Made by a program: the position numbers and the translations under genes | From: Escherichia coli | GTDB lineage: Bacteria > Pseudomonadota > Gammaproteobacteria > Enterobacterales > Enterobacteriaceae | DNA: 64,000 bases | NCBI RefSeq assembly: GCF_016026235.1 | Contig: NZ_CP065613.1 | Strand: one strand, 5' to 3' | The notes under the pieces: generated by a model | What the model was told of the DNA's origin: nothing | What the model saw: the letters and a program-made list of their open reading frames with translations, nothing else | Database searches by the model: none | Shown: piece after piece, positions 3,023 to 26,902 of the stretch | Layout: each line of letters opens with the position of its first letter | Numbering within the stretch: position 1 is the first letter of the stretch

Positions 3023-3050
3023 AAAAAAAACGCCGGATTAACCGGCGTCT
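3023..3050 (-). terminator. rho-independent terminator downstream of fadD
   Basis: hairpin cgccggattaaccggcg followed by a run of 8 T on the minus strand. Confidence 0.5.
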
Positions 3051-3067
3051 GACGACTGACTTAACGC

Positions 3068-4753
3068 TCAGGCTTTATTGTCCACTTTGCCGCGCGCTTC
3101 GTCACGTAATTCTCGTCGCAAAATTTTTCCGACGTTAGATTTCGGTAACTCATCACGAAACTCCACCAGCTTCGGTACTTTGTATCCCGTGAGCTGACGG
3201 CGGCAAAAAGTCACCAGTGACTCTTCGGTAAGCGATGGATCTTTTTTCACTACGAAGATTTTCACCGCTTCACCACTGGAGCCGGAAGGTACGCCAACAG
3301 CCGCGACTTCCTGTACGCCAGGATGCTGCATGACGACATCTTCAATCTCGTTGGGATAGACGTTAAAACCGGAAACCAGAATCATGTCTTTTTTACGATC
3401 GACAATGCGCAGGAATCCTTCTTCATCCATTACCGCGATGTCGCCGGTGTGTAACCAGCCATTTTTGATGATTTCATCGGTAGCATCGGGACGCTGCCAG
3501 TAACCCAGCATCACCTGCGGTCCTTTGACACAAAGCTCACCCGGTTGACCTGGTGGTACTTCATTATCATCATCATCCACCAGTTTGGCTTCCGTCGACG
3601 GCACCGGCAAACCGATGCTACCACTATGATAATCAATATCATATGGGTTAACGCTGACCAGCGGCGCACACTCGGTAAGGCCATAGCCTTCCAGCAGATA
3701 CTGTCCTGTCAGTTTCACCCAACGCTCTGCCACCACTTGCTGCACTGGCATCCCTCCGCCTGCGGAAAGATGCAGACTGGAGAAATCCAGCTGCTGGAAC
3801 TCTTTATTGTTCAGCAACGCATTGAACAAGGTGTTAACGCCCGTGATAGCGGTAAACGGATATTTCGCTAACTCTTTTACCAACCCTGGAATATCGCGCG
3901 GGTTAGTGATAAGCAGGTTCTGCCCACCCAGTTCGATAAACAGCAGGCAGTTAATGGTCAGGGCAAAAATGTGATACAGCGGCAGCGCCGTCACCACCAG
4001 CTCTTTGCCCGGATGCAACAGCGGACCATAGGTCGCGTTAACCTGTTCCAGGTTCGCCAGCATATTGCGGTGAGTCAGCATCGCGCCTTTCGCCACACCA
4101 GTGGTGCCGCCGGTGTATTGCAGAAAAGCTAAATCTTCCGGCACCAGTTCGGGTTTGACGTACTGCATCCGGTAGCCGTTATGCAGTGCGCTACGAAATG
4201 AAATGGCATCTGGCAGATGGTATTTCGGCACCAAACGCTTGATGTATTTAACAACGAAATTGACTACCGTGCCTTTTGCCGTAGATAGCTGATCGCCCAT
4301 ACGGGTCAGAATTACGTGCTGAACGGCGGTTTTATCAACCACTTTTTCCAGTGTGTGAGCAAAGTTAGACACGATAACAATCGCCGATGCGCCGCTATCG
4401 TTAAGCTGATGCTCAAGCTCACGCGGGGTATACAACGGGTTAACGTTTACGACGATCATCCCGGCACGCAAAATGCCAAACAGCGCCACCGGATATTGCA
4501 ATAAATTAGGCATCATCAACGCAACGCGATCGCCTTTCTTCAGCCCCAACCCTTGTTGCAAATAAGCGGCAAACGCGCGACTGCGTTCTTCCAGCTTGCG
4601 GAAGGTCATCACCTCCCCCATATTCACAAACGCAGGCTGATCGGCGTAGCGCGCGACCGACTGCTCAAACATATCTACCAGAGATTGATAACGGTCAGGG
4701 TTGATCTCCGTCGGAACGTCCGCGGGATAACGGTTAAGCCAAACCTTCTTCAA
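3068..4753 (-). CDS. fadD: long-chain fatty acid-CoA ligase FadD
   Basis: Protein recognised as FadD; annotated N-terminus MKKVWLNRY corresponds to a TTG start 22 codons inside the 583-aa track ORF. Confidence 0.9.
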
Positions 4754-15311: not shown

Positions 15312-15377
15312 CGCTGATATGACTTTCCGTGTCAAACCGGAATCTCTAATTTTGACGATTTTCTTTTTAGGTTTAAT

Positions 15378-15562
15378 TCCCTGAGGGCGACGTAGCAGTA
15401 AATCCGACGGTGAATCACGCTGATATTCGCGGGTTGGATACCGCATTACAGAGGTCCGTCATATGAGCCTGCCACTTTCTTACGTCGCGAATCAGCTTTG
15501 TTCCGCCGTCGCCAAGCGCTAACGTGGGTTACTCTTGTACTGGGCTACGTCGCCTTCAGGGA
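15378..15562. repeat. 19-bp imperfect inverted repeat pair (18/19) in the 3' non-coding end of the IS110-family element
   Basis: TCCCTGAGGGCGACGTAGC at 15378..15396 and GCTACGTCGCCTTCAGGGA at 15544..15562. Confidence 0.7.
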
Positions 15563-15618
15563 ACTGGTTATTCTCATTTTTTATTTGTGACATTGTGGTT
15601 GTTGTGCGACAGACATTG

Positions 15619-16707
15619 CTATTCGGCCCATATCCCAGATAAAACCCGCCAGCTCACGTGCAACAGCAACAATTGTAATATTGACATTCTTTCCTTTGGC
15701 CTGAAGTTTTCGATACCTCTTACAAAGCCTGAGTTGAGCATCCCATGCTCTGTCAATGACGGGGCGGGGTAAATTTTCCTGCCTTTTTGTATTGCCGGAC
15801 TGATGCGTGCCGGATGACGGTAACTCCACGCTGCCTCGACCAATAGCTTTCTGGCATAGCTGTTTCCGGCTTTGGTAATGCTGCCCTGATGTCTGCTTCC
15901 ACCCGATGAATATTCTGATGGCGTGATACCAAACCATGACATCAGTTGTCGTGGATGTTCAAAACGGGTCAGATCACCCAGTTCAGAAATTAATCCAACC
16001 GCAGTAATAAACTGAATCCCTCGCATGGCTTGCAGCGCCTCTACTACCGGATACAGCCTCCATTCGGTAACGGCCTCCTTCAGGGCGGATTCCAGCCGTT
16101 CACATTGTGCCTGCCGGTCTTCTATTGTACGACGGTGTTCGTCAAAAGCTAATTGTCGCCAGGGACTTTCGAATGAGTATTTGCTGAGCCAGCGTCGGTG
16201 TGCAGGGCCCCAATCTGCTCGCCCGACATAATGGACCCCATGAACCAGAAGAAACGATTTCAGACGTTGCCTTGCATGCCGTAAATCATCGCGGGCAGAT
16301 GCCCATGCCCGGGCCAAATCCCGGAATGCCTCATCTTCAATGCCGGGTACGTAGACAGCAGAAAGATCTCCTGCACGCAGTGAACGCACAAGTCTGATGG
16401 CATCACGGCGATCGGTTTTAACCCGCTCCCCCGGTTTTTTCGGGATAAGTGAGGGGGCGCAGACCATGCAGTCAAAACCGGATTTCACCAGCCGACGATA
16501 AAGTCCATAACCACAGGGCCCCGCTTCATAAACGATACTGACCTGCGATGACTTTGACCTGAGACGTTTACAAAGATTCTGAATATCAGTAGGTGATGTG
16601 CCAATTTTACCCATCAGTTCAACAGGTTCTGAATTGATAGCATAAGCGACAGTAATCGATTCTTTGTGAACATCTAACCCGACGTACAATGTGTTATTGT
16701 TGTTCAT
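15619..16707 (-). CDS. IS110-family transposase (DEDD RuvC-like N-terminal domain, IS116/IS110/IS902 C-terminal domain)
   Basis: N-terminus MNNNNTLYVGLDVHKESITVAYA and C-terminal ITAVGLISELGD...GITPSEYSSGGS...KAGNSYARKLL motifs; start taken at M17 of the 378-aa track ORF. Confidence 0.8.
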   Translation of the reverse strand: MNNNNTLYVGLDVHKESITVAYAINSEPVELMGKIGTSPTDIQNLCKRLRSKSSQVSIVYEAGPCGYGLYRRLVKSGFDCMVCAPSLIPKKPGERVKTDRRDAIRLVRSLRAGDLSAVYVPGIEDEAFRDLARAWASARDDLRHARQRLKSFLLVHGVHYVGRADWGPAHRRWLSKYSFESPWRQLAFDEHRRTIEDRQAQCERLESALKEAVTEWRLYPVVEALQAMRGIQFITAVGLISELGDLTRFEHPRQLMSWFGITPSEYSSGGSRHQGSITKAGNSYARKLLVEAAWSYRHPARISPAIQKGRKIYPAPSLTEHGMLNSGFVRGIENFRPKERMSILQLLLLHVSWRVLSGIWAE

Positions 16708-16833
16708 GCTGGCCTCCGTGGTGGAAATACCGGGGTGTAGCAACAGCTCACCCATGCGGCTCTGACAACGATGTTAACCCGCGTTAAATATCCCACGTTG
16801 GCCAGCATCTGTCTCACGGAAAGTCATACTGCC

Positions 16834-23865: not shown

Positions 23866-23957
23866 GACAACTCCGGCAGGATACTAAAGGCCGCAAGTGT
23901 AACGCGAATCACGCGGCGGGCAAATATCCGAACGCCAGGAGCGAAGATAAAGCATAG

Positions 23958-23985
23958 TAAAAAGCCTCGCATTCGACGAGGCTTT
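23958..23985 (-). terminator. rho-independent terminator downstream of cspC
   Basis: gcctcgtcgaatgcgaggc hairpin followed by T-run on minus strand. Confidence 0.55.
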
Positions 23986-24030
23986 ATAGCGAGATTGAAG
24001 CGTATTCACACTTCAGATCAGTGGATTCGA

Positions 24031-24240
24031 TCAGATAGCTGTTACGTTAACAGCTGCCGGACCTTTCTGGCCGTCCTGAATTTCGAACTCAACGTTCTGA
24101 CCTTCAGCCAGAGTTTTGAAGCCATTACCCTGGATAGCGGAGAAGTGTACGAACACGTCTTTGCTGCCATCAGCCGGAGTAATGAAGCCAAAACCTTTAG
24201 ACTCGTTGAACCACTTAACCTGACCTTTAATCTTTGCCAT
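24031..24240 (-). CDS. cspC: cold-shock-like protein CspC
   Basis: 69-aa [23 protein letters not shown]... Confidence 0.95.
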
Positions 24241-24252
24241 TTGAAAAATTCC

Positions 24253-24396
24253 TTAGATTGTTTTCTTCGCCCGCAGGCATAACATAGATAAAACTGACAC
24301 ATTACTGCATGAGGCACCAATATAAGGCTCGGCAGAGAAGCGGTATTCAACGTCAACGTGTTTACTCAGGACTTCTTTACTGAAAATGCCACACAT
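24253..24396 (-). CDS. yobF: small protein YobF
   Basis: Manual translation of minus strand gives 47 aa [47 protein letters not shown]; below the track cutoff. Confidence 0.85.
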
Positions 24397-25064
24397 AAAC
24401 AGAACTGTACCTCGTTTAACCCGAAATCTGTTATCACATACAACGTTAATTATGGCAAGCCATTTTTAAACATGTCTCGATCAGACGCACAAATCTCGAT
24501 ACGTCTTCCACTTTTTTTGCACACTTATGCAACGGAATACGCGCTGATATATCATTGTGCTTAACCTTGCCAGTTCAGGCAGATACTTAAACTGGCGTAT
24601 TTTCTAACATAGTTCAATAAGTTCAGTTGTTCCAGGCCAGTGGGAGAAGTTATTACATAGTGCGTGCAATATCACATTTTTTGCTATGCAATGAATAAAA
24701 AGTTATATCACTTTTTCTCATAAAACAGTCAGTTAACGGCTATCAATTACCCTAAAGAGAAGTCAATCCCCAAAGGGATTGAAAATTTAAAATAAGAAAA
24801 ATTGATGAATGAGCAAAAAATCAAGAAAGAAACGTTTCGCTAATAAATAATACCACGCTTAATCACAAATCCGATGTAAACATCCTAATAAATTAATGAG
24901 GAAAATATCTTTTTCTGATATCCCGTTACGCAAATAAATAATATGATAATTATTTGAAGTCAGACCAGAGTTTTAATTTGAAGCAGTTGCACCATGGCAG
25001 TGCGTATAATCAGGATGAATTGAGTAACCCTTCAACGACGGGGTTACTCAAGATTGAGGAAGGA

Positions 25065-25352
25065 TTATCGTTCGGCGACCAGACGAATAATATCTTCGTC
25101 TTCAACCGATTTTTGACTCTCAACGGTCTTTTTATCTGCTTTCTCAGGTTCGTTTGCTTCGCACAAACGACGTAACAGTGCATTTTGACGTTTTTGCTGA
25201 TCCAGCAACGCCTCAAGCAGTTCAATCTGTTCGTTAGTCCGTGAACTGGCACGATTGATAAAAAACCACAAGATGAGCCCGATAAGAAGAACCACCACCG
25301 ATACAACCAAAGACGCAATGTTCATCACGCCTGAATTTACAACTTCGTTCAT
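25065..25352 (-). CDS. yebO: small membrane protein YebO
   Basis: 95-aa ORF recognised as YebO. Confidence 0.85.
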   Translation of the reverse strand: MNEVVNSGVMNIASLVVSVVVLLIGLILWFFINRASSRTNEQIELLEALLDQQKRQNALLRRLCEANEPEKADKKTVESQKSVEDEDIIRLVAER

Positions 25353-25426
25353 TTCACCACCTCTGAGTAGAGGCGCTATTCTACCACTGCTGGAGAGGAA
25401 GAAAATCTAGTGCTGAAAAAATGATA

Positions 25427-25570
25427 TCACCACGGGATAAACTGGTTAATGGCACAAATTCCGCTGAAAAATTGTACATCCTGATCGCACATCATGTTGA
25501 ATACCTGCGCCCAAAGCAGCAAGCAAGCCAACACCACGACAACCAGAACGACCCATCGAAACTTTTTCAC
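25427..25570 (-). CDS. mgrB: PhoQ-inhibiting small membrane protein MgrB
   Basis: Manual translation of minus strand gives 47 aa [47 protein letters not shown]; start codon here is GTG. Confidence 0.85.
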
Positions 25571-25728
25571 TCCAATCTCCGCTTCACCTACCTTATGTCA
25601 TTAAACTAGCATGCGTTAGTTAAACAGCGCCTAACTATGTCGATATTCGTGCTTTTTCGGAATGAGTAGCTTGCTTCAGCGCATATTGCCGCTACGATTA
25701 AGCGAACATAAAAAGAGAAGAGGTTGTA

Positions 25729-25968
25729 ATGCGATTCATCATTCGCACAGTTATGCTGATAGCACTGGTATGGATAGGATTATTACTCAGCGGATATGGC
25801 GTTTTGATTGGAAGCAAAGAGAATGCCGCAGGATTAGGTTTGCAATGTACCTATCTGACTGCCAGAGGCACCAGCACGGTACAATACTTGCACACTAAAA
25901 GTGGTTTCTTGGGGATAACAGATTGCCCACTGTTACGTAAAAGCAATATCGTGGTCGATAATGGTTAA
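25729..25968 (+). CDS. yobH: small membrane protein YobH
   Basis: 79-aa ORF recognised as YobH. Confidence 0.8.
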   Translation: MRFIIRTVMLIALVWIGLLLSGYGVLIGSKENAAGLGLQCTYLTARGTSTVQYLHTKSGFLGITDCPLLRKSNIVVDNG

Positions 25969-26110: not shown

Positions 26111-26902
26111 TCAGAACGGATAGTCGTGATAACCCATTTGGGCAGAAATTTTGCGCGCTGCGGTATGCAACATTGCGACATATTCCTGTAAACGCTCTTC
26201 AGAGAAACGCAACGTCGGGAAGGAGATGCTCAAACCGGCAATGACCACGCCAAAGCGATCAAATACCGGAACCGCAATGCATCGCAGCCCTTCTTCCTGC
26301 TCTTCGTTATCTTCGCCATACCCCTGCTCGCGCACCTGGTCCAGAACGGGTAATAACGCTTCTGTACTGGTGATGGTCCGCTCGGTACTGCGTTTATACT
26401 CCACGCCCTCAAGAATTTGCTTCACTTCATCGAGATCGCGCCATGCCAGCAGTACCTTACCAATCGCGGTGCTGTACAGCGGATTACGACGCCCAATCCG
26501 TGAATACATGCGCAAATTGTACATAGAGTCAATTTTGTGAATGTAAACAATACTGTCTTCGTCCAGTGCGCCGAGGTGGATAGTTTCTTTGGTCAGGCGG
26601 GAGATCTCACGCATCTGGATATCTGCGCTACGAATTAAATCGACGTTTTGTAACGCGCGAGCGCCCAGTTCAAACAATTTCAGGGTCAGGGAATATTTCT
26701 CCGACTCCCCTTCCTGCGCCACATAACCTAAGGTTTTCATGGTCTGTAAAAAGCGATAAACGGTGCTTTTTGACATCATGACGCGCTGCGACAGCTCGGT
26801 TATCCCTATTTCGCGCTCTTCACCCAGCGCCTGCAAAATGCCAAAAACTTTTAGCACGGAAGATACAGAATCAGGCTGTTTATCCAGATCTGCGTTAGCC
26901 AT
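26111..26902 (-). CDS. kdgR: IclR-family transcriptional repressor KdgR
   Basis: 263-aa ORF recognised as KdgR. Confidence 0.9.
   Translation of the reverse strand: MANADLDKQPDSVSSVLKVFGILQALGEEREIGITELSQRVMMSKSTVYRFLQTMKTLGYVAQEGESEKYSLTLKLFELGARALQNVDLIRSADIQMREISRLTKETIHLGALDEDSIVYIHKIDSMYNLRMYSRIGRRNPLYSTAIGKVLLAWRDLDEVKQILEGVEYKRSTERTITSTEALLPVLDQVREQGYGEDNEEQEEGLRCIAVPVFDRFGVVIAGLSISFPTLRFSEERLQEYVAMLHTAARKISAQMGYHDYPF

Follow-up and report, generated by a model that had tools for sequence, protein, structure and literature searches.

An intact Escherichia coli mgrB gene beginning with GTG, and the occurrence of this start codon among Enterobacteriaceae

Introduction

Escherichia coli MgrB inhibits the PhoQ sensor kinase in negative feedback (PMC8404706; PMC11429745), and its overexpression mimics deletion of phoQ (PMC11429745). 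The lysines K2 and K3 and the tryptophan W20 are functionally important, and these residues, together with periplasmic residues of the protein, inhibit PhoQ and so give rise to the feedback loop (PMC8404706). In Klebsiella pneumoniae, the numbering of mgrB starts at the GTG start codon (PMC6054975). In E. coli, the gene has been cloned with a primer beginning GTGAAAAAGTTTCGATGGGT, and resistance-associated insertions fall between the PhoP box and the start codon (PMC10746255). That mgrB begins with GTG is already known, since this start stands in the reference annotation and is in routine use in the Klebsiella resistance literature. On a conserved GUG start of mgrB, our literature search found only mentions in resistance genetics and in connection with primers.

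GUG is the start codon of 14% of E. coli genes, and in reporter assays GUG and UUG initiate translation at 10-100% of the level of AUG, depending on context (bioRxiv 10.1101/063800). [quoted passage not shown] Here we describe mgrB in a 64,000-nt stretch of E. coli DNA, called the window, and compare its start codon with those of E. coli K-12, K. pneumoniae and other species.

Results

The window carries an intact mgrB gene

The mgrB region of the window contains the following genes:

25427..25570, minus strand: mgrB coding sequence, 47 codons and a TGA stop at 25429..25427, encoding the PhoQ-inhibiting small membrane protein MgrB
25568..25570, minus strand: GTG initiation codon of mgrB (sequence, RefSeq start position, orthologues, published Ribo-RET and genetics)
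25065..25352, minus strand: yebO, same-strand downstream neighbour, separated from mgrB by a 74-nt gap (Pfam YebO PF13974 and RefSeq)
25729..25968, plus strand: yobH, divergent upstream neighbour of mgrB (Pfam YobH PF13996 and RefSeq)
26111..26902, minus strand: kdgR, neighbour in the mgrB region

The product of 25427..25570 matched the Pfam family MgrB (PF13998) with 66.3 bits against a cut-off of 27 (E=2e-18) and the NCBIfam equivalog NF007635 with 89.9 bits against a cut-off of 40, the latter aligned over residues 1-47 of 47. Its translation has an N-terminal Lys-Lys, a transmembrane segment from W6 to F24 that includes W20, the periplasmic cysteines C28 and C39 and a terminal W47, and these hallmark residues were invariant or nearly so in the orthologue alignments. 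The gene lies between the divergent yobH and the downstream yebO, with kdgR next, which is the standard E. coli arrangement.

The window was then set against mgrB of K-12 MG1655 (b1826, formerly yobG; NP_416340.1; 1908623..1908766, minus strand), which shares the GTG start, the GGAG spacing and the neighbours yebO, yobH and kdgR. In a gap-free alignment of window positions 25700..25400, the 301 nt contained two single-base differences, both upstream: position -12 is G in the window and A in K-12, and position -98 is T in the window and G in K-12. They spare the Shine-Dalgarno core, the predicted -10 element and the predicted PhoP box. The 144-nt coding sequence was wholly identical to that of K-12, in agreement with an earlier note on this DNA, which had recorded the frame as intact. 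The first codon of b1826 in RefSeq aligned exactly with the GTG of the window, so that a reference with another initiation codon, which the note had named as grounds for refutation, was not found. The PGAP annotations of E. coli strains E2865 and E5 use the same GTG. Between the predicted PhoP box and the GTG, the window contained no IS element or other interruption.

A 501-nt piece spanning mgrB was present in 5423 of 5426 complete E. coli genomes, several at 100% identity, and 11 of the 5423 genomes with the locus covered less than 80% of the query. Taken together, we put the probability at about 0.97 that the window carries a wild-type, intact E. coli mgrB whose real initiation codon is the GTG at 25570..25568 on the minus strand. 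With the start, the ribosome-binding site and the predicted promoter intact, we expect no altered PhoQ/PhoP signalling (polymyxin or trimethoprim tolerance) on account of mgrB.

E. coli strain 744, a blood isolate (NZ_CM132967.1; L087), is without mgrB and yobH. Its match comprises the first 172 of the 501 query bases and breaks off inside the coding sequence of mgrB, where a kdgR pseudogene, annotated as lacking its C-terminus, follows directly; this locus is a natural deletion that takes out most of mgrB. Of the approximately 5400 E. coli mgrB matches, one comes from a record that is classified as plasmid and not as chromosome.

We also made observations on the product and on the downstream gene. 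The NCBI family name for NF007635 is now 'PhoP/PhoQ regulatory lipoprotein MgrB'. Codons 13-16 (25523..25534) encode V-L-A-C, a lipobox-like stretch ending at C16, where Superficieibacter and related sequences have Gly instead; a literature search for support of MgrB lipidation, as the name 'lipoprotein' implies, found nothing relevant. No terminator-like site was seen between the mgrB stop and the yebO start (25353..25426). The sole promoter-like match nearby (25421..25449; TTAACC-17-TATCAT with TG) lies inside the last mgrB codons. yebO may be partly co-transcribed with mgrB, and the two genes are still neighbours in L083 and L084, the most divergent loci (described below).

The GTG codon is preceded by a Shine-Dalgarno motif and an in-frame stop

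The minus-strand sequence at the mgrB start is gaagcGGAGattggaGTGaaaaagtttcgatgg, and the minus strand from 25610 to 25540 reads gctagtttaatgacataaggtaggtgaagcGGAGattggaGTGaaaaagtttcgatgggtc. Three elements stand close to the start codon:

25577..25580, minus strand: Shine-Dalgarno core GGAG, whose last G is separated from the GTG by 6 nt (sequence and orthologue conservation)
25570..25573, minus strand: second GGAG (GGA+G), whose last G is the first base of the start codon
25598..25600, minus strand: in-frame TGA, 10 codons upstream of the GTG, which bars an N-terminal extension here

The earlier note had placed a 47-amino-acid MgrB frame from GTG at the complement of 25568..25570, and this proved exact to the base in both the sequence and the list of open reading frames. 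Upstream of the GTG, the in-frame codons are GGA, ATT, GAG, GCG, GAA, GGT, GTA, AAG and CAT, followed by TGA. Since no ATG, GTG or TTG stands between the TGA at 25600..25598 and the GTG at 25570, the latter is the sole canonical start that gives the conserved N-terminus. This N-terminus, M-K/R-K-x-R/K-W, was conserved in almost every MgrB orthologue. The GTG has the features of a genuine GUG-initiated coding sequence: no other possible start separates it from the preceding in-frame stop, a Shine-Dalgarno motif lies within the range of 5-9 nt upstream, and the residues that follow are conserved as protein.

The GGAG that the same note had described as suitably spaced lies at 25580..25577, 6 nt before the GTG, and was retained in the orthologues to a degree that chance does not explain. 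Among 76 distinct 47-codon orthologues, its columns (-10..-7) were conserved at 92-99%, the base at -1 was A in 97%, and 75 of the 76 began with GTG. The third base of codon 2 was always A in these sequences, and ordinary twofold synonymous sites (K3, Q22, Q33 and the last base of the stop) were divided about 50:50.

Published data agree with this start, among them ribosome profiling, which the note had suggested as a check. Ribosome profiling of E. coli under Mg2+ limitation by Ribo-RET (retapamulin) placed the top mgrB peak of ribosome density 8 nt away from the start codon, counted from its first base, and the mgrB figure of that report marks the annotated start (PMC11429745). No N-terminal proteomics of native MgrB was found in the literature. 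The K. pneumoniae gene (L034) encodes a 47-amino-acid orthologue with about 70% identity to the E. coli protein and, as in the window, has a GTG start with GGAG 6 nt upstream. The mutation mgrB G3A (GTG>GTA) is listed as giving a non-functional MgrB in colistin-resistant clinical isolates (PMC9334626). This change would be a silent valine substitution if the codon were internal, so its listing as inactivating supports, on genetic grounds, initiation at this codon. The clinical relevance of MgrB for colistin resistance in Klebsiella, to which the same note had drawn attention, holds.

Predicted promoter and proposed expression of mgrB

Two promoter elements were predicted upstream of the start codon:

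25621..25637, minus strand: predicted PhoP box, a direct repeat (TAGTTA-GGCGC-TGTTTA) with a period of 11 nt in a block conserved across genera
25603..25611, minus strand: predicted extended -10 element TGcTAGTTT, 12 nt downstream of the predicted PhoP box

In an alignment of 110 nt upstream of mgrB from 21 lineages, we found a conserved block (A)GTTAG-N-(G/T)GTTTAA and a conserved TGnTAnnnT, the latter as TGcTAGTTT, TGaTAACCT, TGcTATCCT or TGaTAATTT. We assign 25621..25637 as a putative PhoP box on the basis of the published consensus (T/G)GTTTA-N5-(T/G)GTTTA. A simple sigma-70 consensus scan did not report the predicted mgrB promoter, because it has no -35 hexamer; the lack of this hexamer is expected for a PhoP-activated promoter. 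From the PhoP-box-like motif and the extended -10 element without a -35, transcription is predicted to start near 25596, giving a leader of about 26 nt.

On these motifs, we propose the following course of expression. Phosphorylated PhoP would bind the box at 25637..25621 and activate the extended -10 promoter, and the resulting mRNA would have a short, probably unstructured leader of that length. The 30S subunit pairs with GGAG at -10..-7, and initiator fMet-tRNA reads GUG, so that residue 1 is Met and not Val; in bacteria, the reading of an initiating GUG as Met by this tRNA is established biochemistry. The A-rich codons 2 and 3 (AAA AAG, Lys-Lys) that follow are conserved in nucleotide as well as in protein sequence, and the product is a membrane protein of 47 amino acids that lies with its N-terminus in and its C-terminus out (PMC8404706).

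The mgrB start codon is GTG in nearly all lineages examined

We scanned one genome per species with an MgrB alignment and retained the best 80 of the 108 loci that were confirmed. Because the search relied on the peptide patterns DVQFFSGI and MKK[FL]RW.., it is not biased to GTG. The retained loci span Escherichia, Salmonella, Citrobacter, Klebsiella, Raoultella, Enterobacter, Lelliottia, Kluyvera, Cedecea, Buttiauxella, Kosakonia, Phytobacter, Pluralibacter, Trabulsiella, Superficieibacter, Silvania and others. Among these best 80 of the 108 Enterobacteriaceae loci, 79 begin with GTG and one (Kluyvera cryocrescens, L015) with TTG; none begins with ATG.

An exhaustive profile search for more distant orthologues returned 56 matches, all close or fragmentary, and the best 120 of 256 matches of an indexed profile search were all close relatives. 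The two most divergent homologues of the exhaustive search (P0074 and P0063) were traced to contigs L083 and L084. Both contigs read GTG AAA AAA at the mgrB start position and have the same yobH/mgrB/yebO arrangement as the window. Their gene calls are extended upstream to 67 and 93 amino acids, with the GTG read as Val. The other lineages in total therefore had GTG in 81 of 82, TTG in one and ATG in none, for a species set that consists of Enterobacteriaceae and these two homologues. More distant mgrB orthologues exist in Yersinia, Proteus, Providencia, Photorhabdus and Serratia (PMC8404706).

To count changes at the start codon, we applied Fitch parsimony to a neighbour-joining tree of 78 taxa that was itself derived from the short mgrB sequence (141 nt). 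The first base of the start codon showed one change (G>T) and no G>A, and the third positions of invariant codons, Trp excepted, showed 4-13 changes on the same tree. Within E. coli, the native 63-mer around the start was found exactly in 4038 of 5421 genomes, and the best match to an ATG version of it was at most 98.4% in 4997 genomes. Strain E5, which has two mismatches to the native 63-mer, still starts with GTG.

Possible reasons for the retention of GTG

A change in the start codon of an ATG-start gene is a loss, whereas G>A in a GTG-start gene gains the optimal codon. GTG was kept in about 80 lineages although G>A would make that codon, which points to a constraint against ATG. The retention suggests, without proving it, that a start of less than maximal strength is selected because it tunes the feedback on PhoQ, and the simplest and most likely reading is one of MgrB dosage. 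Since MgrB forms the negative-feedback arm of PhoQ/PhoP and mimics a phoQ deletion when overexpressed, over-efficient translation would over-damp the system. We tentatively consider, as a possible but rather doubtful explanation, that selection keeps the GUG of mgrB in every sampled lineage because AUG would make excess MgrB and over-damp PhoQ/PhoP. No expression measurement of an mgrB ATG allele was found in the literature.

Alternatively, the GTG start may be retained with no meaning for dosage, through ordinary purifying selection, the GGAG/A(-1)G(+1) context or an RNA-level interaction, and we judge the chance of this to be only slightly short of even. The neighbours of mgrB likewise retain their start codons, as their ATG was kept wherever the first codon could be located (yebO 81/81, yobH 79/79), and the entire block from -10 to +8 is conserved, not the G alone. 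In the 76 distinct sequences, GG stands at -3/-2 in 82-86% and A at -1 in 97%, so that G(+1) completes the second GGAG. However, GTG is still kept in species without this second motif (tgtaGTG, atgaGTG, agtaGTG), and its presence in about 80 species, where G>A would yield the optimal codon, goes against the trend towards maximised initiation (PMC5622118). Nor did we find a stable RNA structure involving the start codon: the segment 25596..25530 (leader and 13 codons) folded at -8.8 kcal/mol against a shuffle mean of -8.6 kcal/mol (z = -0.11), which makes an RNA hairpin unlikely as the constraint on this codon.

Two overlapping reading frames were considered and rejected. The out-of-frame ATG at 25556 (36 amino acids) does not open a conserved overlapping frame, since this ATG depends on the third position of codon 5, where all four bases occur without constraint (A33/G24/C18/T1), and is therefore not conserved. 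The antisense 62-amino-acid frame at 25421..25609 (plus strand) is probably a mechanical open reading frame only.

Alternative starts and extended MgrB entries

A longer protein from an upstream ATG, in which the GTG would be an internal valine, is hardly credible. Such entries exist as 58-amino-acid 'MgrB' proteins of Klebsiella aerogenes and Lelliottia and as metagenomic calls of 61-93 amino acids, and they have V exactly at the GTG (...ESGVKKLRW, ...ECGVKKIRW, ...ENAVKKYRW, ...RRVKKLWW). The K. aerogenes entry reads MATSDYGAESG-V-KKLRW, and the extended proteins include P0023, P0026, P0059, P0061, P0063 and P0074. Against this reading, the in-frame TGA at 25600..25598 blocks any extension in the window, the extensions vary between genera in sequence and length, nearly every species has the conserved GGAG at a distance of 6 nt from the GTG, and the region upstream of the GTG is the predicted promoter. 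The unconserved extensions, the conserved GGAG and the predicted upstream promoter together indicate that the extensions are gene-caller artefacts arising from a preference for ATG.

A true start further downstream, at the internal in-frame GTG GTG TTG of residues 12-14 or the ATG ATG of Met26/Met27, with the GTG at 25570 as a mechanical beginning of the frame only, is almost certainly wrong, because these candidates exist but have no suitably spaced Shine-Dalgarno motif, the codons that precede them show conservation at the protein level (MKKFRW), NF007635 aligns from residue 1, the Ribo-RET figure plots the annotated start (PMC11429745), the GTG>GTA mutation of Klebsiella reportedly inactivates the gene (PMC9334626), and the N-terminal lysines K2/K3, the transmembrane region and W20 are needed for function (PMC8404706), which rules out downstream starts. 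We therefore retain the GTG at 25570..25568 as the start of mgrB.

A shortened protein may also have entered the literature. 'E. ludwigii MgrB' lacks K2/K3 and was mislocalised and inactive (PMC8404706), and each Enterobacter locus that we examined reads GTG AAA AAA ATA CG. (MKKIRW). The tested E. ludwigii MgrB may thus be a truncated annotation that misses the GTG start.

Other features of the window

Several further features were recorded in the window outside the mgrB region. An IS1 element at about 39988..40767 (transposase frame 40249..40752, Pfam DDE_Tnp_IS1) seemingly lies inside the SraC/RyeA - SdsR/RyeB locus, where Rfam matches at 39903..40049 (both strands) and 40732..40831 (plus strand) show the RyeA match split in two by IS1. 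The insertion probably removes the 5' end and promoter of SdsR. The 2.4-kb stretch around this IS1 was matched over at least 80% of its length in 2 of 5426 E. coli genomes. At 40952..42097 (minus strand), a single 381-amino-acid frame contains CopD and DUF2511 (YebY) domains; in other E. coli, copD (290 amino acids) and yebY (113 amino acids) are separate genes 12 nt apart. It seems that about 75 nt missing at the 3' end of copD, a size calculated from the match spans, led to an in-frame copD-yebY fusion.

Between pdeD and yoaE, the window has a segment of about 1.5 kb (15315..16833) that is absent from strain E2865 and includes a gene for an IS110-family transposase of 378 amino acids (15619..16755, minus strand). 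A cspA-type thermoregulator leader (23956..24416, minus strand; Rfam, 135.7 bits) lies upstream of the yobF-csp pair, the downstream csp gene of which is cspE in PGAP annotations, and the small RNA sroD (Rfam, 115 bits) lies at 3024..3109 (minus strand). Both the leader and sroD are expected in this region.

Discussion

For mgrB resistance screens, positions 1-3 are the GTG start, and a GTG>GTA change that seems synonymous is a null allele. Gene callers often skip GTG, and the resulting MgrB entries of 58-93 amino acids contaminate databases.

The retention of GTG, and never ATG, in the Enterobacteriaceae sampled is a small, testable hint that translation strength may be part of feedback tuning. 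If the dosage explanation is true, the start codon would act as a conserved element that sets the gain of the feedback loop, and one could predict that GTG>ATG gives a hypo-responsive (PhoQ-off) allele.

The mgrB start can be compared with other non-AUG starts of E. coli. The AUU starts of infC and pcnB and the GUG-start genes resemble that of mgrB in that a non-AUG codon is read by the initiator tRNA, with lower or context-dependent initiation (bioRxiv 10.1101/063800). Conceptually, non-AUG starts such as those of infC, pcnB and mgrB are a means of setting protein dosage. The rare start codon of infC is part of a demonstrated autoregulation through IF3. The GUG of mgrB differs from it in being a canonical start and not a rare one, and the demonstrated regulatory role belongs to infC.
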